Under the pieces are notes generated by a model that was not told the DNA's origin, ran no database searches, and saw nothing but the letters and a program-made list of their open reading frames with translations. A program made the translations under genes and the position numbers. Positions 10,642 through 20,370 of a DNA stretch of 20,370 nt are shown piece by piece. Origin of the DNA: Candidatus Wukongarchaeum yapensis (GTDB lineage Archaea; Asgardarchaeota; Wukongarchaeia; Wukongarchaeales; Wukongarchaeaceae); contig JAEOSI010000017.1 of the NCBI GenBank assembly GCA_016840425.1, positions 1-20,370 on the forward strand, given 5' to 3'. Numbering within the stretch: position 1 is the first letter of the stretch; the number at the start of each line of letters is the position of its first letter.

Positions 10642-12060
10642 TTGGTGAGATTGTCTCCGTTAACGGTTCATGGTTTGTTGCCGGGTATTAACTGTAAGAA
10701 GTGCGGGGAGGTGACTTGTCTTGCTTTTGCTTCTAAGCTTGTTGCGAGAACGGCTGAAGTTGAGGCTTGTACTCCTCTTTTTGAGGAGGAGCAGTATGCT
10801 GAGAAGAGGCAAAAGCTGATTGAGTTGATTACGCCTCCGGTTGTTTCTGTGAAGATTGGTGGAGGTGAAAGGACCGTTGTTGTAGGCGGTGAGGAGGTTT
10901 TATATAGGCATGATTTGACGTTTTATCATCCTTGTGCTTTGGCTATTGATATTAGTGATGAGATGGATGAAGAGACGGTAAAGAAGAGGGCTGAGTGGGC
11001 TGATAGGTTAAAGATTGAGCGTATAGGCAAGGTTTTAACTTTAAACCTTATAGCGGTTAGGGATGTTTCGGATGATCCTGAAAAGTTTGCCAAGGTTGTT
11101 TCATGGGTTCGGGAATCTGCTGGTTTACCGTTGATTTTGTGTTCTTATAATCCTGAGGCGATTAAGGCGGCTTTGGATGTATGCGAGATGGATAGACCGT
11201 TAGTGTATGCTGCGACTGAGAATAACTGGCAAGAGATCGCTCCTCTTGTCAAAAAGTATAACGTTCCTGTTTGTGTTTCAGCTCCAGATAATTTAACATT
11301 GCTAAAACAGTTAGCTGTAACGCTTCAAGCCTATGGAATAAAGGATATAGTTCTTGATCCTGGCACTTTTATTGATAACGGTGGCTTGAATAGGACTCTT
11401 CAGAACTTTGCGCTTTTAAGGCGTGCTGGAATAGAACAGGAAGAGGAAGGGGTAGGGTTCCCGTTGTTGGGCATACCTGCCATAGCATGGGCTAATGGGG
11501 AAGATTCTGTGACGAACGCTTATACGGAGGCTATAGTTGCATCGATGCTTATAGCAAAGTATGCGGATATTTTGATTCTTCACAGCGAGGATGTATGGTC
11601 GCTTCTCCCCGTGTTCACGCTTAGGCAAAACATCTACTCTGATCCAAGAATACATCCCGCGATAGATCCGGGCATTAGGGAGATTGGTAACCCGACTCCA
11701 GAGTCACCAGTATTTGTGACTGCGAATTTTGCCCTTACATATCACACTATAGAGTCAGATCTTGAAGATGGGAAGATAGATTCTTGGATTCTTGTTGTGG
11801 ATACTGAAGGCATTGGTATAGAATCAGCGGTAGCAGGAAGGCAATTTTCCGCAGTTAAAATAAAAGAGGCTATTGATGAGTTTGATTTAGAATCTAAGGT
11901 AAGTCATAGGGTTATGATGTTGTCTGGCCTTGCGTCAAGGATAAGCGGTGAAACTGAAGAGGAAACAGGATGGAAAGTGATCGTTGGTCCGAAAGACTCA
12001 GGGGGCCTCAAGGCAATGAACTTAAAGGAGCTTTGGGAGAAAAAAGCACAAGAAGAATAA
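10642..12060 (+). CDS. cdhE: Corrinoid iron-sulfur protein large subunit (CODH/ACS gamma subunit)
   Basis: N-terminal LLPGINCKKCGEVTCLAFA...C Fe-S domain; GGEEVLYRHDLTF; TIM-barrel region with DIVLDPGT; C-terminal corrinoid domain PVFVTANFALTY...LVVDTEGIGIESAVAGRQF...VGPKDS. AAGGAGG 10 nt before the TTG start. Confidence 0.95.
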   Translation: MVRLSPLTVHGLLPGINCKKCGEVTCLAFASKLVARTAEVEACTPLFEEEQYAEKRQKLIELITPPVVSVKIGGGERTVVVGGEEVLYRHDLTFYHPCALAIDISDEMDEETVKKRAEWADRLKIERIGKVLTLNLIAVRDVSDDPEKFAKVVSWVRESAGLPLILCSYNPEAIKAALDVCEMDRPLVYAATENNWQEIAPLVKKYNVPVCVSAPDNLTLLKQLAVTLQAYGIKDIVLDPGTFIDNGGLNRTLQNFALLRRAGIEQEEEGVGFPLLGIPAIAWANGEDSVTNAYTEAIVASMLIAKYADILILHSEDVWSLLPVFTLRQNIYSDPRIHPAIDPGIREIGNPTPESPVFVTANFALTYHTIESDLEDGKIDSWILVVDTEGIGIESAVAGRQFSAVKIKEAIDEFDLESKVSHRVMMLSGLASRISGETEEETGWKVIVGPKDSGGLKAMNLKELWEKKAQEE

Positions 12061-12813: not shown

Positions 12814-13425
12814 GTGAGCGAAGAAGTTTCAAAAATTGATTTGATAAAAGAAGAAGTCGCTGGTACTTCTAGTATTGTTGGTGATTTGGTTTTAGAGTTT
12901 GAAAAGATTTTGGATGAAGGAGAGCGTAAAACTGTTGAAGATATGATTCGTGATTCGCGAGAAACTTGGTTTCCTGCAAAGCTCATAATAAAATGGGAAG
13001 AAAAGGGAGAAGAGAGGATAATAAGGCTTGTCGCTGTTGGTGGCGTGAATTACGTCACGCTTTATGATAAAGGTGATGGGTATTATGAAGGAGAACGGCT
13101 TTTCTTGCTCATAAAAACTATTAAAGATGTTTTTCCAAGCCTTTCGAGGATTGGATTCTCCATAGTAACTCCTTTCGAATGGATGGAAAAATGGCTTGAA
13201 AAGGGAAAACCTGTTAAGTCTCCTATATCGATAAAGTTTGGTTATAAATGGGATGTAGGAGATACTAGCAGGCTTTTTGGAGGTTACGGTGCAGATCGAA
13301 TAATGGAATTTTCGACACAAAAAGGGGAAGAATTCGAGCCAGTTGAACTGTTAAGTATGCTTAGAAACCTTAATAAAAGGTCTCCATTAAATGAAATAAC
13401 TGCTCTCCTAATGTTCTCCATATAA
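12814..13425 (+). CDS. Hypothetical protein (203 aa)
   Basis: Open frame filling the gap between known genes; GGTGG 6 nt before the GTG; soluble alpha/beta-like composition; no family recognised. Confidence 0.7.
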   Translation: MSEEVSKIDLIKEEVAGTSSIVGDLVLEFEKILDEGERKTVEDMIRDSRETWFPAKLIIKWEEKGEERIIRLVAVGGVNYVTLYDKGDGYYEGERLFLLIKTIKDVFPSLSRIGFSIVTPFEWMEKWLEKGKPVKSPISIKFGYKWDVGDTSRLFGGYGADRIMEFSTQKGEEFEPVELLSMLRNLNKRSPLNEITALLMFSI

Positions 13426-13507: not shown

Positions 13508-14803
13508 TTATATCTTTTGGAGAAGGTTTTGGAGGATTTCTTTATCGGGTAAGCAGTTTTCACTCGGAGAATCGAGGAACTTTCTCAATTTTTTTGTTTG
13601 CATGTCCATTCTTATCATCGTGCCTTCTGTCTCTACCCCGGTTATAGTAGCGGGAATAGCTACTGAAGCCTTTTTAACGGTTAAATTCATCTGGGTATCT
13701 ATTACGATTAAAGGAATATTTTGTAATTTTTCCACTAATTTTTGGGGAAAACTGGCGAAAGGATTCGCGCCAATGATCAACGCTGCATCGCAATCCCCGT
13801 TGATTAAGGCTTCTGTCACCGTTGTCTTCTCCGGAGGATTTTTTGAAAAATCTATACCGTAACCATAGGGCACTCCAGCCATCTTTTTTGCTGCTAGGTT
13901 AAATCCTAGCATGTTACTGTGTCCTATCATGGGCATTAGTGAAAATTGCCCCTTGAGATTTGGGTGTTTTACGAGTTTTATTAAACCTTCAATGTTTTCC
14001 TTGAAATTTTCTTGCTGGAGGATTCCAAGGCCGAAAAAGATTGTGCCAAACTGTGCTTTTTTCATCATTTTACCAAAATCGATGATGTCTTTTTTCATGA
14101 TCCCTCCTACATTTTCAGGCAATTCTTTGCCGGATAGATATTCAATTAAAGCTTTTATTAGGTTTAAGTCCTTTTCTGGCTCTATTTGTAAGAATAGGTT
14201 TATTCCTTTGGCGGATCTTGTTTTTATGACGTCAACAACGACGACTTCCCTTTCCAATCTTCCTGTGATTCTGACTTTTCCCCGGGGAAAAACGGTGTAT
14301 CGGCTTAGGTGTCTGCTGTGAGAATCGGCAGGGTTAGACCCCCAATAGACCACAAGATCTGCCATATCCCCTACTTCTTCTAAAGTGGGACATTTGAACT
14401 CCTCCCTGGAAATCTCTTCTATCAATCTTAAAGAAATTCCATGACAAATGCTTGAAGTGGAATCTATGACACCTTCAAGCTTTTCAGCAAGTTGTATCCC
14501 TACTTCTTGGGCTTCATAACTAACGCTGCCCCAACCGTATAACAACGGCTTTTTTGCTCGTGAAAGAAGATTACAAGCCACATCTAATGCCTCGCTTAAA
14601 TGAGCGGGCTTTAACCTTCCTTCCTCCAAGATAAGGGGGTTAGTTAATCGATTGGGAGAGTTAACAAGTTTTAAAAAAGCATCCCCCCGCATGCATGCGT
14701 TATAAGTGGAAACAATTTTTCCATCATTAATAACGCAAAAAACATCATCACAAAGCAAAGAGCAATGAGGACAAACAATCCTTTCTACCTGTCCCAAAGC
14801 CAA
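13508..14803 (-). CDS. fwdB: Formylmethanofuran dehydrogenase subunit B-like Mo/W-bis-pterin protein
   Basis: CPHCSLLCDD...ACMRG [4Fe-4S] motif; PLLYGWGS; DSTSSICHG (metal-ligand Cys, TGT at 14444-14446); VVYWGSNPADSHSRHLSRY; GVETEGTMIRMD. GGTGA upstream of the TTG start. Confidence 0.92.
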   Translation of the reverse strand: MALGQVERIVCPHCSLLCDDVFCVINDGKIVSTYNACMRGDAFLKLVNSPNRLTNPLILEEGRLKPAHLSEALDVACNLLSRAKKPLLYGWGSVSYEAQEVGIQLAEKLEGVIDSTSSICHGISLRLIEEISREEFKCPTLEEVGDMADLVVYWGSNPADSHSRHLSRYTVFPRGKVRITGRLEREVVVVDVIKTRSAKGINLFLQIEPEKDLNLIKALIEYLSGKELPENVGGIMKKDIIDFGKMMKKAQFGTIFFGLGILQQENFKENIEGLIKLVKHPNLKGQFSLMPMIGHSNMLGFNLAAKKMAGVPYGYGIDFSKNPPEKTTVTEALINGDCDAALIIGANPFASFPQKLVEKLQNIPLIVIDTQMNLTVKKASVAIPATITGVETEGTMIRMDMQTKKLRKFLDSPSENCLPDKEILQNLLQKI

Positions 14804-15085
14804 GATCTTTCACCTTTCATAATTTAAAATAGTAAACGTCTTTAATTACTCTGATAACTAAAGTAACTTACATAATTTTAAAGTTGAATGCCGTAAGAAG
14901 CTTTATACTCTCCTTAAAAAGCTAGGTTAATACGTTATTACAGCAGCTATAACCATATCTTATAGATTTGATAATATGTTTCATAATTATATTAACTGCA
15001 ATTTAATATCTCATTTTTTAAATTATATTTTATAACAATATTAGGCAACTAAATCATTAATAATTATAATATAATTATAATACCG

Positions 15086-15586
15086 CTATATTAGAATTTT
15101 TATTGCTTCTGTGAAACAGTATATTTCGCACACGCGGCATTGGGCATAGGAAAGTTTTTCCGTGTCGGCGTACCTGCGGCATTTTGTGAGGTCGATTATT
15201 TTTGCTTTTCCATCCTTTACAACATAGATAACGTTTTCCTCTTTTTCTGGGGCTACCCCTATGCCTGCGGATGATTCTGGGTTTTCTGCAACGTTTACTG
15301 GGCAAACAATCAGGCAGTTACCGCATCCGATGCATTTTTCTTCTTCAAGAATTATTCCTGTTTCTAAGGCCTCGCTTAGAGGGGTTAGGAGTTCTTGGAG
15401 CTTTTTTAACTGTTTTTCGTAGGCTTTTTCTTCAAAGAGAGGCGTGCATTTTTCGAGTTCGATTTGGCGTCCTAGGAGTTTAACTGCAAAGGCCATACAT
15501 CCTGATTCGCCGCATTTTTTACAATTAGTTTTAGGAAGGAGTTGGAACACTTCGAAAGCATTCAATTTTGTCAAAAATGGCACCAC
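15086..15586 (-). CDS. fwdG: FwdG-like ferredoxin with N-terminal CdhE/RnfB-type Fe-S domain
   Basis: LLPKTNCKKCGESGCMAFA...CTPL domain followed by CIGCGNCLIVCPVN (typical of FwdG) and a second cluster motif C-x13-CRVCEIYC. The start may be TTG 15574, which follows GTGGTG. Confidence 0.75.
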   Translation of the reverse strand: MVPFLTKLNAFEVFQLLPKTNCKKCGESGCMAFAVKLLGRQIELEKCTPLFEEKAYEKQLKKLQELLTPLSEALETGIILEEEKCIGCGNCLIVCPVNVAENPESSAGIGVAPEKEENVIYVVKDGKAKIIDLTKCRRYADTEKLSYAQCRVCEIYCFTEAIKILI

Positions 15587-15870: not shown

Positions 15871-18249
15871 GTGAAAGTCGGAGTTTTTGTTTGTCATTGT
15901 GGGTTTAACATTGCGAGCACGGTTGATATAAACGAAGTTGTTTCAGAGTTAAAGAAGGATCCTGAGCTTTTATGTTTTGATCATGATTATGTTTGCTCAG
16001 CTGGTGGTTTAGGGTTGATCAAGGAAAAGATTTTGGAGGAAACGCTTGAAAGGGTTGTTGTTGCGAGTTGCACTCCAAAACTTCATGAATTCCTTTTTAG
16101 ACAAACTTTAGAGAAGGCTGGTTTAAATCCTTATTTTCTTGAGGTTGCCAATATAAGGGAGCAGTGTAGTTGGGTTCATTTTGATGACCCTAAGAGGGCT
16201 ACAAGAAAGGCTATAGTTCTTATAAAAATGGCTGTGGAGAAGGTTAAGCTTCAGTCGTCTTTAAGTGTTAGAAAGGTTCCTGTTGAGCAAAGTGTTTTAG
16301 TGGTTGGTGGGGGTGTTGCAGGGATAACTGCAGCTTTAAATGTGGCTGATGCCGGGCTTAAGGTTTATTTGGTTGAAAGAGAGCCCAGTATTGGGGGTCA
16401 TATGGCTCAATTTGATAAAACGTTTCCTACGATGGATTGTTCGATATGTATCCTTGCCCCTTTAATGGTTAGGGTTTATGAACACCAAAACATCACTTTG
16501 TTGACTAATTCCGAAGTTTTGCAAGTGAATGGGTCTGTTGGTAAGTTTGAAGTAGAGGTTTTGAAGTATCCTCGTTATGTTGATGAAGAAAAATGTAGTC
16601 AATGCTATCAGATATGTACTGATCCTTGTCCTATAGAGGTTCCTAATGAGTTTGATTTGAATATGTCAAAAAGGAAGGCGATATATGTTCCGTTCCCTCA
16701 AGCGGTACCTTTGGTTCCTTTGATAGATGAGGAGAACTGTGTAGGTTGTAGGGCTTGTGAGCTTGTTTGCGACCTTGATGCGATAGACTTTGATCAAAAA
16801 CCAGAAAAACTGGCGTTGAAAGTCGGTGCAATAATAGTGGCTACGGGGTATGAGACTTATGATGCTAGCAAGAAAACTGAATATGGATATGGTAAGTATC
16901 AGAATGTTATCACGTCCATTGAACTTGAACGTATGCTCACGCCTTTTGGTCCTACAGAAGGTAATGTGATTCGCCCTACTGATGGAGAATATCCGAAAAA
17001 CGTTGTTTTTGTCCAATGTGTCGGTAGTCGTGATGAAGAAACTCCTTATTGTTCTAGGGTTTGTTGTTCTTACGCTATAAAACAGGCTCAAGAGATCAAG
17101 GAGAGGATTCCTGGAGTTGAAGTTTACATATTCTACCAAGATATTCGTACTTTTGGCAAGGGGCAGGAGGAAGCGTTTAGAAAAGCGCTTGATGAGTATC
17201 GTATAAGGTTTATTCGAGGAAGGGTTAGTAAAATAATCGAGGATAATAAGAGTAAAAGTTTGTATGTTCTTGCTGAAGATACGTTGGTTGGGCGTCCTGT
17301 GGAGGTTTTTGCGGGCTTAGTTGTTTTATCTGTGGGGCTTCAACCGCCAAAGGGTACTGATAAAATTGCTTCTCTATTAAAGGTGAGTAGAAGCGTAGAA
17401 GGTTTTTTGTTAGAGGCCCATCCTAAGTTAAAACCTGTTGAAACCCACAAAGCGGGGATATTCTTAGCTGGGTGTATTCACGGTCCAAAAGATATCCAAG
17501 ATACTGTTTCCCATGCGGGGGCTGCGGCCTCTAAGGCTATAAGTTTACTTATAGGAGGAGAGATCACCGTTGAAAAAATTACCCCTGTGATCAGTTTAGA
17601 AGACTGTATTAAGTGTGGTTTATGCGAAAAGGCTTGTGATTTTGGGGCTATTATTGTGACGAAAGGGGGAGCTCAGGTTAATGAAGCTGCTTGTTTTGGG
17701 TGTGGCGCTTGTGCTGCGACCTGCCCAACTTCCGCCATAGATATGCCCATTTCAAAAGACGCTCAAGTGTTGGCACAAATCGATGCCGCTATTAAAGAGA
17801 AGTGGGAGTTTCCGTTGATAATCGGTTTTTTATGTAATTGGTGTGGTTATAATGCTGCAGATATAGCAGGGGTAGGTAAACAAAAGTATCAGCCTAACAT
17901 GTTACCGATTAGACTTTCATGTTCTGCTAGTGTTGACCCTTCTTATGTTTTTCACGCCCTTTTTAAAGGGGCTGACGGTGTATTAATCGCTGGATGTTAT
18001 CCGCAAGACTGCTATTATAGTACGGGTTTCAAGAAGGCAAAACAAAGGGTTTCAATCATAAAATCAACGTTAAACGAGTTAGGTATTAGCAAGGAGAGGG
18101 TTCACATTATTAGTTCGAGCGCTTCGGAAGGAAAGAAATTTGCGAAGGAGGTTGATGAGTTTATAAAAAAGATAGAAAAGCTTGGCATAATGGGGACAGA
18201 ACTAGAGAGTGAAATTATGAGCATAAAAGTTTCTAAAGAGGAGGAATGA
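15871..18249 (+). CDS. hdrA: Heterodisulfide reductase subunit A fused to C-terminal MvhD/HdrF [2Fe-2S] domain
   Basis: VGVFVCHCG, ANIREQCSWVH, VGGGVAG (FAD), DKTFPTMDCSICILAP, ITSIELERM, QCVGSRD, YCSRVCCSYAIKQA and GPKDIQDTV motifs; inserted and C-terminal 2x[4Fe-4S] domains. MvhD-like IIGFLCNWCGYNAADIAG...GADGVLIAGC...DC from about 17812. Confidence 0.95.
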   Translation: MKVGVFVCHCGFNIASTVDINEVVSELKKDPELLCFDHDYVCSAGGLGLIKEKILEETLERVVVASCTPKLHEFLFRQTLEKAGLNPYFLEVANIREQCSWVHFDDPKRATRKAIVLIKMAVEKVKLQSSLSVRKVPVEQSVLVVGGGVAGITAALNVADAGLKVYLVEREPSIGGHMAQFDKTFPTMDCSICILAPLMVRVYEHQNITLLTNSEVLQVNGSVGKFEVEVLKYPRYVDEEKCSQCYQICTDPCPIEVPNEFDLNMSKRKAIYVPFPQAVPLVPLIDEENCVGCRACELVCDLDAIDFDQKPEKLALKVGAIIVATGYETYDASKKTEYGYGKYQNVITSIELERMLTPFGPTEGNVIRPTDGEYPKNVVFVQCVGSRDEETPYCSRVCCSYAIKQAQEIKERIPGVEVYIFYQDIRTFGKGQEEAFRKALDEYRIRFIRGRVSKIIEDNKSKSLYVLAEDTLVGRPVEVFAGLVVLSVGLQPPKGTDKIASLLKVSRSVEGFLLEAHPKLKPVETHKAGIFLAGCIHGPKDIQDTVSHAGAAASKAISLLIGGEITVEKITPVISLEDCIKCGLCEKACDFGAIIVTKGGAQVNEAACFGCGACAATCPTSAIDMPISKDAQVLAQIDAAIKEKWEFPLIIGFLCNWCGYNAADIAGVGKQKYQPNMLPIRLSCSASVDPSYVFHALFKGADGVLIAGCYPQDCYYSTGFKKAKQRVSIIKSTLNELGISKERVHIISSSASEGKKFAKEVDEFIKKIEKLGIMGTELESEIMSIKVSKEEE

Positions 18250-18255
18250 AATGCT

Positions 18256-19590
18256 TTGACAGTGTTTGAGCAAGTTACTCGAAATTTTGACGTTATTGAT
18301 ACAAACTTTTTGCTTACGTGGAAGGTCAGAAAAAAGGATAAAAGCCTCCTTTATTTTAGTGAAAAATGTGTAGGTTGCCAGCTTTGCCAAGAGATTTGCC
18401 CTGTTTCAGCCATAGAATATGGACCGATACCGCAAATCGCTACGGGGGAAATAGAAGCCCCTTATATATTGATCGATTTAGACAAGTGTATTTTTTGTGG
18501 TTTGTGTGCGGTTGTTTGCCCGACTCATGCCCTATTATTTGCTTTTAATAAGAAACAGATCGATTTATTAAACGATTATCCAAAGATTTCAGGCCGGATA
18601 GAGATCAGTGATGAATGTATCCCTTGTAAATTATGCGACCTTGTTTGTCCAACCAAGGCGTTTAAATTAGAGTTGGAGGTTGAAAAAAAGGAAAATCTTG
18701 TAACGTATGAGGAAGAGATACCGCCTGAAAAGGTAGAGGGAGCTATAATCATAGATAAAGAAAAGTGTACTTATTGTGGTCTTTGTGAGGAACTTTGTGA
18801 AGCGATTAAGATTACGTGGGTTGAGCCTTCAGGGGAGTTTCTCAGGCCTGGTATTGATATTATTGTAGATGAGGATAGGTGTGATTACTGTAATTTATGT
18901 GCAGAGTTATGTCCATCCGAAGCCGTAAAAGTCGAATGTAAAACCCCTCTTGAGAGGACAGTTAGAGAACCGAATATTAGGGGTTCGCTTGTTTTGAATG
19001 AGGATAAATGCATTTACTGTGGTTGGTGTGCTTTTGTGTGCCCTGTAGAAGCCGTTAAGTATGAGAAGCCTTTTGAAGGAGAGGTAACGGTTTCAAATCT
19101 TGAAAAATGTGACCCTGTTGGGTGCAATGCTTGTATAAAGATCTGTCCTACAAACGCTTGGTATATCCCGAAACGTTCCTTGGAAGATGAAGTAACAGAA
19201 AAAATCGCGGTGAACAAGGATCTTTGCGTTTTTTGTGGTGCCTGTCAAAATTCTTGTCCTGAAAACTTGATAACGGTCACAAGAAAAGAGATACATGTAG
19301 AAGAAGAAATTCCACATAGACCTTGGACAACATCATGGAAAAGAGATTTAAACAGATTGATAAATGTTCCTTTGCCCGTCAAAAACTTTAGAGAGATAAG
19401 CTTAAAGCCGGTAGAGCCTGTTGAAGAACTGCCAAGCCCCATAACTCCTATACAGAAAATTTCAGAAAATATGCAAAATCTTCTCGAAGAAAAGGCAAAA
19501 ATCATAGAAGAACGCTTAGAAACTCCAAAATTTAGGAGGCTTCTTGAGGGGTTTACCAGTCGTAAACCAAATTCCTCCTCTAAACCCTAA
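18256..19590 (+). CDS. fwdF: Polyferredoxin with eight [4Fe-4S] motifs, FwdF-like
   Basis: Eight Cys motifs counted: CVGCQLCQEICP, CIFCGLCAVVCP, CIPCKLCDLVCP, CTYCGLCEELCE, CDYCNLCAELCP, CIYCGWCAFVCP, CDPVGCNACIKICP and CVFCGACQNSCP. FwdF-like linkers (GPIPQIATG, KPFEGEV). Starts 6 nt after the hdrA stop. Confidence 0.88.
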   Translation: MTVFEQVTRNFDVIDTNFLLTWKVRKKDKSLLYFSEKCVGCQLCQEICPVSAIEYGPIPQIATGEIEAPYILIDLDKCIFCGLCAVVCPTHALLFAFNKKQIDLLNDYPKISGRIEISDECIPCKLCDLVCPTKAFKLELEVEKKENLVTYEEEIPPEKVEGAIIIDKEKCTYCGLCEELCEAIKITWVEPSGEFLRPGIDIIVDEDRCDYCNLCAELCPSEAVKVECKTPLERTVREPNIRGSLVLNEDKCIYCGWCAFVCPVEAVKYEKPFEGEVTVSNLEKCDPVGCNACIKICPTNAWYIPKRSLEDEVTEKIAVNKDLCVFCGACQNSCPENLITVTRKEIHVEEEIPHRPWTTSWKRDLNRLINVPLPVKNFREISLKPVEPVEELPSPITPIQKISENMQNLLEEKAKIIEERLETPKFRRLLEGFTSRKPNSSSKP

Positions 19591-19626: not shown

Positions 19627-20022
19627 TTAGGAAGGGATTATAGGGGTTATTTTTTCCGTGGTTCGTTTTATGGTGGCTTTTATGTTTTTATAACGGGGTA
19701 TGCTACTTCCTTCAGGGGGTCCTGTGAGAAGGTTGGCCCAAGGACCTTTGGGTATTGCTATTACTCCTTTTTGAACCCCGTTTTCTTTTACTGCTCTAAC
19801 TACAACTAAACCGTAATTTGTCATTATTTTAACTCTGTCTCCTTCTTTTAAATTCAACACCTTGAAGTCTTCTTCGCTTATTTTACACAAAGCCATTGTT
19901 TCAACATATTCCTCGCTATTTTCAGCAAAGTTTTCCCTAGCCCCTTGTTCCGCTGTCCTTATAGTGATTAAAACGACATCTATCTCAATCTCTCCTAAAA
20001 GCGACCTATCAACTAAAGACAT
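19627..20022 (-). CDS. fwdD: Formylmethanofuran dehydrogenase subunit D-like (molybdopterin dinucleotide-binding domain)
   Basis: LITIRTAEQG, LNLKEGDRVKIMTNYGLVVVRA, GVIAIPKGPWAN and PRYKNI match the FwdD pattern. Confidence 0.88.
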   Translation of the reverse strand: MSLVDRSLLGEIEIDVVLITIRTAEQGARENFAENSEEYVETMALCKISEEDFKVLNLKEGDRVKIMTNYGLVVVRAVKENGVQKGVIAIPKGPWANLLTGPPEGSSIPRYKNIKATIKRTTEKITPIIPS

Positions 20023-20232: not shown

Positions 20233-20370
20233 TTGTCCGATTATTTGGATTTTGATAAGCTGGCTGAGAATGCAAGTAGTTGGGAGTGGGCTTTTTACGA
20301 TAAGATTAGGAAGAGGAATATTTTTGCATCTTTTAATTTTACAAAGTGTTATCAGTGTGGTAAGTGTGTA
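20233..20370 (+). CDS. hdrC: 5' part of an HdrC-like Fe-S protein, running off the window end (not in the ORF track)
   Basis: Frame 1 from TTG 20233 (AGGGGT 6 nt upstream) reads MSDYLDFDKLAENASSWEWAFYDKIRKRNIFASFNFTKCYQCGKCV. CYQCGKC is the typical first cluster motif of HdrC. Other GlpC/HdrD-like Fe-S proteins cannot be excluded from 46 codons. Confidence 0.7.
   Translation, partial: MSDYLDFDKLAENASSWEWAFYDKIRKRNIFASFNFTKCYQCGKCV

Follow-up and report, generated by a model that had tools for sequence, protein, structure and literature searches.

A conserved archaeal FwdB paralogue without the substrate-binding arginine, encoded beside Hdr genes in Candidatus Wukongarchaeum yapensis

Introduction

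The catalytically important residues of FwdB, subunit B of formylmethanofuran dehydrogenase (Fwd), are Cys118, His119 and Arg288 (PMC6926001), and in the formate dehydrogenases the arginine is the binding site of formate, CO2 and azide (PMC10385643, PMC11134731). Here, we describe a FwdB paralogue, called FwdB', in which this arginine is replaced by an isoleucine. It is encoded on contig JAEOSI010000017.1 of Candidatus (Ca.) Wukongarchaeum yapensis (GCA_016840425.1, 92% complete), of which positions 1–20,370 of the forward strand were analysed. This whole stretch of DNA, 20,370 nucleotides long, is referred to as the window. A second genome of the same genus, G002, is called the sister genome below.

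A number of described systems come close to the one considered here. One is FwdB of Methanothermobacter wolfeii (5T5I, chain B). In the electron-bifurcating supercomplexes that methanogens form from heterodisulfide reductase (Hdr) and Fmd/Fwd (M. hungatei, 7BKB; M. marburgensis, PMC13580544), HdrA, MvhD, HdrBC and an FmdF-type polyferredoxin are combined with an end module of the FwdB/D type. Methanosarcina has an annotated and constitutively expressed fwdG2B2D2 cluster (Rohlin and Gunsalus 2010, PMC2838876), and for Ca. Methanonezhaarchaeum fastidiosum YNP3N a 'Fwd-Hdr' cluster has been reported, for which the relevant passages propose formate oxidation (Kohtz et al. 2025, PMC12700198); the passages of that paper on FwdB, Fwd-Hdr, the polyferredoxin and FwdG say nothing about active-site residues. 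Finally, FhcB of M. extorquens (6S6Y) is a FwdB homologue in which the fold is reused without the dehydrogenase function. It lacks the Fe-S domain, the Cys ligand, His119, Arg288 and the FwdD partner, and has loops that clash with the pterin (PMC6926001).

Compared to M. wolfeii FwdB, FwdB' has the same length, the same fold (TM-score 0.92, root-mean-square deviation 1.9 Å and 38% identity when an AlphaFold2 model is compared with 5t5i_B by Foldseek) and the same [4Fe-4S] motif, and the equivalents of Cys118-His119-Gly and Gly289-His290 are present, as are a separate FwdD-type cap and a nearby FwdF-like polyferredoxin. The differences are the exchanges of Arg288 to Ile, Pro121 to Ile, Val293 to Met and the Thr of the GxGxT motif to Leu, a cationic residue two positions after the fourth cluster Cys, and the placement in a separate clade. 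Furthermore, the lineage has no FwdA or FwdC partner for this subunit, and a three-cluster protein of 166 amino acids, called G*, is found instead. Like FhcB, FwdB' is a FwdB homologue in which the catalytic residues are not all conserved, but it keeps the Fe-S domain, the Cys ligand, the His119 equivalent and the partner FwdD', and only Arg288 is lost.

At the level of gene content, the locus resembles M. acetivorans fwdG2B2D2 in being a G-B-D set without A and C. It also resembles the described part of the 'Fwd-Hdr' cluster, with a second FwdBD next to HdrABC, FwdF and FwdG or a FwdG-like protein, and a separate FwdABCD elsewhere, which in that organism lies with Wood-Ljungdahl genes. The Hdr-Fmd/Fwd supercomplexes provide a further parallel, as HdrA, MvhD, HdrBC, the polyferredoxin and the FwdB/D-type end module are encoded together also here. 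By analogy, this co-encoding suggests a direct wiring of the low-potential arm. The window differs from the supercomplexes in that there are no hydrogenase or FdhAB genes nearby, HdrA and MvhD are fused, and the end module is without FwdA, FwdC and the substrate-binding arginine. Our literature searches found no paper on the loss of this arginine, or on a remodelling of the pocket, in this family.

Results

The substitution and its conservation

The reading frame of fwdB' is open without stops, and its product matches TIGR03129 over the whole protein with 425.7 bits (cut-off 327.8). The best solved relative is M. wolfeii FwdB (5t5i_B, phmmer E 1.5e-90), and in this alignment SICHG falls on the chain Cys118-His119 and PMIGHSN on PMRGHYN, with Ile293 at the position of Arg288 and His295 at that of His290 (coordinates in Table 3). 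Ile123, with the codon ATT (14435–14437), takes the place of Pro121 in HGPS. The alignment thus bears out what a first-pass annotation had read from the DNA, namely an intact SICHG, a change of PMRGHYN to PMIGHSN and a change of HGPS to HGIS. That annotation had also listed Cys118, His119, Arg288 and His290 as lining the CO2 site; the first three are documented as catalytic (PMC6926001), while for His290 only the position is confirmed. It was right that the arginine is conserved in formate dehydrogenases, as the position aligns with Arg333 of E. coli FdhH, which at the two places reads U140-H141-G-P143 and R333-G-Q-N-N-V338 (K-12 translation).

An alignment of FwdB homologues reveals a clade that shares the isoleucine. 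It is present at the Arg288 column in 15 homologues from several Asgard lineages, as compared to Arg in 94 out of 94 canonical FwdB proteins of the same alignment. Among the 120 homologues, the closest ones (89–90% and about 50% identical, some of them named Hodarchaeota) all carry Ile. A second group with Ile, with names that include Kariarchaeaceae and Promethearchaeota, is characterized by SFCHGV[ST] and PMIGHYN, and a group from Freyr- and Jordarchaeia has Ala at this column. The isoleucine is shared by homologues that are 40–90% identical to FwdB', and it is encoded by ATA, ATT or ATC depending on the lineage, with the sister genome having the same ATA, and the alanine by GCT or GCA. The ratio of nonsynonymous to synonymous substitution rates of fwdB' relative to the sister genome is 0.15, similar to those of the adjacent genes, and the gene is under purifying selection. 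The Arg-less FwdB' is thus a real and conserved feature.

The pocket

For the pocket, 94 canonical FwdB proteins were compared with 26 Arg-less proteins that keep the Cys-His pair; the residue counts exclude the long-branch FwdB-like representatives without the Cys (P0140, P0150, P0196). Canonical FwdB has 117 columns with a conservation of 90% or more, and only five of them switch completely in the Arg-less proteins (Table 1). Four of these five fall in the CHGP, GxGxT and RGHYNV motifs. The Pro, Thr, Arg and Val of these four columns are conserved also in E. coli FdhH.

Table 1. Columns that switch between canonical FwdB and the Arg-less proteins, with the residues at the aligned places of FwdB' and E. 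coli FdhH.
Canonical FwdB	Arg-less proteins	FwdB' of the window	FdhH
Pro121	V/S/I/A/F	Ile123	Pro143
Thr of GxGxT	L/S	Leu262	Thr300
Arg288	I/A	Ile293	Arg333
Val293	M	Met298	Val338
Pro near residue 370	variable	Thr370	

In D. vulgaris FdhAB, Thr408 of the motif M405-x-x-T408-Q409 positions the helix Ile191-Thr196, which bears the metal ligand, His193 and Pro195 (PMC11134731). FdhH reads M297-G-V-T300-Q at the aligned place, and judging from the motif its Thr300 would correspond to Thr408. Because of this match to FdhH and D. vulgaris FdhAB, the replaced residues can be assigned to the first and second shells of the active site. Nitrate reductases have Thr and Met at the positions of the Arg and His, and both exchanges together with one added Arg gave a formate dehydrogenase nitrate-reductase activity (PMC10385643). 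Within the superfamily, an exchange at the Arg column is thus an established way of altering the substrate.

Other parts of the site are retained. There are 18 columns that are invariant across the canonical and the Arg-less proteins, Cys120 among them, and over 102 aligned proteins Cys120 never varies, and His121 and Gly122 hardly do. In the lineage of the window and its nearest relatives, Cys-His-Gly is invariant over the range of 40–90% identity, and the G-H-x-N that follows the lost arginine is also kept in FwdB'. The AlphaFold2 model has a mean predicted confidence (pLDDT) of 95.3, it contains no large insertions or deletions relative to FwdB, and it superposes much less well on FhcB (6s6y_F, TMq 0.68) than on M. 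wolfeii FwdB.

The only basic residues that an alignment search found to be specific to the Ile-type clade are Arg39 and Lys377. Arg39 is located two residues after the fourth cluster Cys and aligns with FdhH Lys44, a strictly conserved cation between the [4Fe-4S] cluster and the proximal pterin (PMC12176258). Every one of the 26 Arg-less proteins has R, K or H here, as compared to a hydrophobic residue in each of the 94 canonical proteins, and at this site FwdB' resembles a formate dehydrogenase more than canonical FwdB does. Since Arg39 aligns with Lys44 at the Fe-S/pterin bridge, it lies outside the substrate pocket. Besides Arg39, the alignment offers no family-conserved basic residue that could plausibly replace Arg288, and this alignment check speaks against the possibility, raised initially, that the catalytic arginine is supplied from another position. 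On the basis of Cys120, the presence of FwdD', the superposition of the model and Arg39, the cofactor is probably retained in FwdB'.

A family linked to G*

The Arg-less proteins form a family of their own. A maximum-likelihood tree calculated with IQ-TREE separates 39 canonical from 37 G*-linked or Arg-less proteins by a single branch with an SH-aLRT (approximate likelihood-ratio test) support of 98, and in a FastTree tree of 128 sequences the branch has a support of 95. The former tree is unrooted, and since the root is not placed, we make no statement about which form is ancestral. FwdB' is the least degenerate member of this old archaeal family of FwdB paralogues, which we call G*-B'-D' after the three gene products.

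G* is 150–185 amino acids long across the loci and carries 12 invariant Cys. It contains the [4Fe-4S] domain PF04060, as found at the N-termini of CdhE and RnfB, and its best NCBIfam matches are models of the CdhE and RnfB types, FwdG not being among them. The gene is located immediately upstream of the Arg-less gene in 11 out of 11 and 10 out of 10 loci of two sets, in 35 of the 37 loci obtained by searching with G* itself, the other two being cut by a contig end, and in all four loci from Methanosarcinales and Archaeoglobus. In the first three of these sets (11, 10 and 37 loci), no canonical FwdB has G* directly upstream; the nearest case is one Altiarchaeota locus from the G* search, in which G* is followed by FwdA and, at a distance of 2 kb from G*, by a canonical FwdB with the Arg. 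G* is thus the obligatory upstream partner of FwdB' and a marker for the Arg-less module. It is a single-copy gene in 119 of the 251 Asgard genomes sampled; when only the 89 genomes of high quality are counted, 50 have it.

None of the G*-linked FwdB' proteins has Arg at the Arg288 column, and the residues around the metal vary between lineages (Table 2). HdrA-MvhD and the polyferredoxin adjoin the module in genomes of six family codes (f1, f20, f16, f8, f15, f12) and in loci named Borr-, Sif- and Thorarchaeota. Outside the Asgard archaea, G*-B'-D' clusters with a B' lacking the Arg are carried by genomes of Methanosarcinaceae, of anaerobic methanotrophic archaea (ANME-2) and of Archaeoglobus, and from these relatives among metagenome-assembled genomes we infer that M. 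acetivorans fwdG2B2D2 belongs to the same family. Compared to FwdB', the second sphere in Methanosarcinales is Cys-Gln with Val or Ala and not Cys-His with Ile. The flanks covered for the Methanosarcinales and Archaeoglobus loci, which are short (up to about 1.5 kb), showed no Hdr genes.

Table 2. Metal-ligand pair and residue at the Arg288 column in the G*-linked family.
Lineage	Ligand pair	Arg288 column
Genus of the window and family f20 (nearest named homologue Hodarchaeota)	Cys-His	Ile
Borr- and Sifarchaeum	Cys-His	Ile
Freyr-/Jordarchaeia and family f7	Cys-His	Ala
Promethearchaeia and Odinarchaeota	Cys-Gln	Gly
One f9 genome (G146)	Cys-His	Thr
Archaeoglobi	Cys-Leu	Gly
Methanosarcinales	Cys-Gln	Val or Ala
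Thorarchaeota	Glu-Tyr, no Cys	Ile or Val

In the loci of the Thorarchaeota type (L056, L057, L074, L076), the Glu-Tyr form of FwdB' still follows G* and faces HdrA-MvhD and the polyferredoxin. The flanks retrieved for these four loci showed no fwdD'.

In many lineages the module includes a FwdA paralogue, 28–39% identical to canonical FwdA and without FwdC (L041:3497-5221, L038, L049-L052, L087-L103). In the single one checked, from Borrarchaeum, the HxH, Lys, His, His and Asp at the metal/zinc-ligand positions of M. wolfeii FwdA are intact. The module has no such paralogue in the lineage of the window or in f20.

Canonical Fwd in the same genome

The genome also encodes a canonical FwdB (552 bits), with SVCHAPT and PMRGHYN, on contig C47, in an operon with the order fwdD-fwdB-fwdA-fwdC-ftr. 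The canonical operon was the only location of FwdC, and neither FwdA nor FwdC has a second copy in the 92%-complete genome. The same holds for G002 and G060. A search of the same genome for true FdhA (TIGR01591) gave only weak matches, by the two FwdB and the two FwdD proteins. That fwdB' is a paralogue, as had been inferred from the window, is thereby confirmed, by this separate operon and by its place in a distinct, old paralogous clade.

The locus

The features of the window are collected in Table 3. The HdrA-MvhD fusion matches the HdrA2 model NF040770 over its full length with 1059.6 bits, slightly below the cut-off of 1100 bits, and the polyferredoxin matches NF042909 with 298.1 bits, also below the cut-off (375 bits). 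The best solved relative of FwdD' is 2ki8, 'FwdD-2' (E 1e-22), ahead of canonical FwdD (5t5i_D, 2.3e-16). Where the window ends, the sister genome continues with hdrC and then hdrB (L033:9321-10881), which complete an HdrA2BC set around the Fwd-like genes, and hdrC-hdrB follow the module likewise in the f20 loci. No hydrogenase or FdhAB genes that could act as donors are found near the fwdB' module.

Table 3. Features of the window and residues of FwdB' discussed in the text.
Feature	Position	Strand	Evidence
cdhE, lone (acetyl-CoA decarbonylase/synthase gamma subunit)	10642-12060	+	555 bits
203-aa open reading frame between a methyltransferase gene and fwdB'	12814-13425	+	no Pfam match
FwdB' (FwdB paralogue, Arg-less G*-linked subfamily), 431 aa	13508-14803	-	TIGR03129, 5t5i_B, AlphaFold2/Foldseek, tree
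Met298, at FwdB Val293 / FdhH Val338	13910-13912	-	alignment
Ile293, codon ATA, at FwdB Arg288 / E. coli FdhH Arg333	13925-13927	-	alignment, codon reading
Leu262, at Thr of GxGxT (FdhH Thr300; putatively D. vulgaris FdhAB Thr408)	14018-14020	-	alignment
Cys120-His121-Gly122-Ile123; metal-ligand Cys and His kept, Pro of (C/U)HGP replaced by Ile	14435-14446	-	alignment
N-terminal [4Fe-4S] motif Cys11, Cys14, Cys18, Cys37, then Arg39 (14687-14689)	14687-14773	-	alignment; PMC12176258
G*, 166-aa Fe-S protein, PF04060 [4Fe-4S] domain and 2x[4Fe-4S] ferredoxin	15086-15586	-	Pfam, NCBIfam
HdrA-MvhD fusion, HdrA2 type	15871-18249	+	NF040770; PF02662 at C-terminus
FwdF-like polyferredoxin	18256-19590	+	NF042909; repeated Fer4 domains
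FwdD' (FwdD paralogue; domain capping the pterin cofactor)	19627-20022	-	PF01568; 2ki8
hdrC, 5' end, cut at contig end 20370	20233-20370	+	sister genome continues with hdrC

G* and fwdB' are separated by a spacer of 282 bp (14804–15085), which in the sister genome measures 204 bp; other lineages have about 3–60 bp between the two genes, or the genes overlap. An Rfam scan of the window and a promoter and terminator scan of the 282-bp spacer gave nothing. The 203-residue reading frame is 91% identical in the sister genome. The cdhE gene is located 1.4 kb from fwdB', and the N-terminal Fe-S domain of its product is the one that is also found in G*. We have also considered a link to acetyl-CoA synthase as a rule for the family, and rejected it: the module has cdhE as a neighbour in the window, in the sister genome and in a single Altiarchaeota locus, and the remaining loci lack this neighbour.

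Eight FwdB representatives with 570–640 residues (P0122, P0126, P0129, P0130, P0145, P0151, P0157, P0163) turned out to be FwdD-FwdB fusions. Arg is found at the Arg288 column in seven of them, with Cys-His kept in six of these seven. P0163 retains the Arg with the ligand Cys changed to Gly, and in P0151 the Gly-His that follows the Arg in canonical FwdB is Gly-Tyr.

Discussion

The reading that we favour, with a probability of about 50%, is that FwdB' serves as the cofactor-bearing redox end-module of an Hdr complex and either acts on another substrate than canonical FwdB or is purely a sink or relay. FwdB' would still bind the [4Fe-4S] cluster and a W/Mo-bis-pterin cofactor, and by homology with FwdF-FwdG-FwdB the electrons would pass from the polyferredoxin via G* and the [4Fe-4S] cluster of B' to the metal site. 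This path would constitute the low-potential arm of a bifurcating enzyme of the HdrA2 type, with HdrBC taking the high-potential arm. The pocket is predicted to be uncharged, more hydrophobic and bulkier, and canonical binding of formate or CO2 is therefore unlikely. Rather than being a second CO2 reductase, FwdB' would convert some other compound, probably a neutral one, or would do no more than take up or pass on electrons for the Hdr complex.

A bolder version of this proposal is that G*-B'-D' represents a new catalytic class of W/Mo-bis-pterin enzyme, in which low-potential electrons from HdrA2 would be used to reduce a substrate other than CO2 or formate, or in which that substrate would be oxidized in reverse. 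We regard this as speculative and, on present grounds, rather unlikely.

Three observations weigh against the proposed end-module role. The residues of the second sphere vary by lineage (His/Ile, His/Ala, Gln/Gly, Leu/Gly), and Thorarchaeota even have Glu-Tyr in place of Cys-His, a variability that fits a family role without metal chemistry better than one new substrate shared by all members. Secondly, the FwdA paralogue beside B' in several lineages hints that formyl or formate chemistry persists there. Thirdly, G* is commoner in Asgard genomes without FdhA, and could be a stand-in for a formate dehydrogenase.

The first of these observations leads to an alternative that we consider unlikely, namely that FwdB' is a non-catalytic scaffold or electron wire, which has lost the pterin or the chemistry and is kept for its [4Fe-4S] cluster and for docking, in the manner of Nqo3/NuoG or FhcB. 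The [4Fe-4S] motif is indeed present in all but one of the aligned FwdB' proteins, the exception being an Archaeoglobus protein with CPD instead of CDD and the Cys unchanged. The metal ligand and second sphere, in turn, have degenerated in parts of the family, to the Glu-Tyr of Thorarchaeota and to the loss of the Cys in some Archaeoglobaceae, and there are cofactor-less MopB precedents in FhcB (PMC6926001) and Nqo3 (PMC10100899). However, in the lineage of the window and its nearest relatives Cys-His-Gly does not vary at all, and FwdD' is retained, although the known role of FwdD is to cap the pterin and Fhc does without it. In addition, a cationic residue is present at the Fe-S/pterin bridge, and the clashing loops of FhcB are missing, as reflected in the TM-scores (0.92 to FwdB vs. 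0.68 to FhcB).

Another option is that FwdB'D' is still a formate dehydrogenase or CO2 reductase, working at a modified site and feeding or draining the bifurcating Hdr. This is the function put forward, in the passages that deal with it, for the co-located FwdBD, HdrABC, FwdF and FwdG of Ca. Methanonezhaarchaeum (PMC12700198), and the retained Cys, His, Gly and G-H-x-N would be in line with it. The FwdA paralogues found beside B' in other lineages, with the zinc ligands intact in the Borrarchaeum protein, also point in this direction, and the lack of a true FdhA in the genome of the window lends it weak support. There is, moreover, a rough complementarity between G* and FdhA, the former being present in 8 of the 52 Asgard genomes with FdhA as compared to 111 of the 199 without (odds ratio 0.14, uncorrected for phylogeny), but this is a weak argument: phylogeny and the distribution of the Wood-Ljungdahl pathway confound the negative association, and the eight genomes have both genes. 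We have therefore not used the complementarity as support. The arginine that would have to be dispensed with is invariant in all canonical FwdB proteins and equivalent to FdhH Arg333, a substrate-binding residue. Three other residues of this pocket, Pro, Thr and Val, are exchanged as well, the alignment reveals no plausible family-conserved basic substitute, and the lineage of the window has neither a second FwdA nor a second FwdC. Taken together, we find a formate- or CO2-converting FwdB' improbable.

Finally, the caveat attached to the first-pass annotation, that ATA is one base from AGA and could stem from a sequencing or consensus error or a very recent mutation of a canonical FwdB, is refuted for practical purposes by the same ATA in the sister genome, by the ATT and ATC codons for Ile and GCT and GCA for Ala in other lineages, by three further pocket residues that co-vary with Ile293, by the purifying selection, and by the separate canonical FwdB of this genome with fwdB' in a distinct clade.

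That annotation had suggested a paralogue with a different substrate or direction, or a non-catalytic subunit. This was the correct range of possibilities, among which sequence alone cannot decide. The annotation had overlooked the context that defines the family, namely the Fe-S partner gene G* upstream and the connection with Hdr.

Conclusion

Asgard archaea are the closest known relatives of eukaryotes, and in reconstructions of their metabolism the fwdB' genes are annotated as 'formylmethanofuran dehydrogenase subunit B' and counted as capacity for the Wood-Ljungdahl pathway and CO2 fixation. The present results indicate that the Arg-less copy belongs to a different, second module, probably wired to Hdr and marked by G* in the sampled Asgard genomes at the frequency given above, and its pocket argues against the only function proposed so far, i.e. 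a formate oxidation that feeds Hdr (PMC12700198). With relatives in Archaeoglobus and in Methanosarcinales, probably including the M. acetivorans fwdG2B2D2 cluster, the function should be testable in cultured organisms. Once known, it would fill a gap in the Hdr-type electron bifurcation of non-methanogenic archaea. If the module were indeed to represent a new catalytic class, this would mean that the Hdr systems of these archaea have an unrecognized terminal reaction, present in about half of the sampled Asgard genomes, in Archaeoglobi and in Methanosarcinales.

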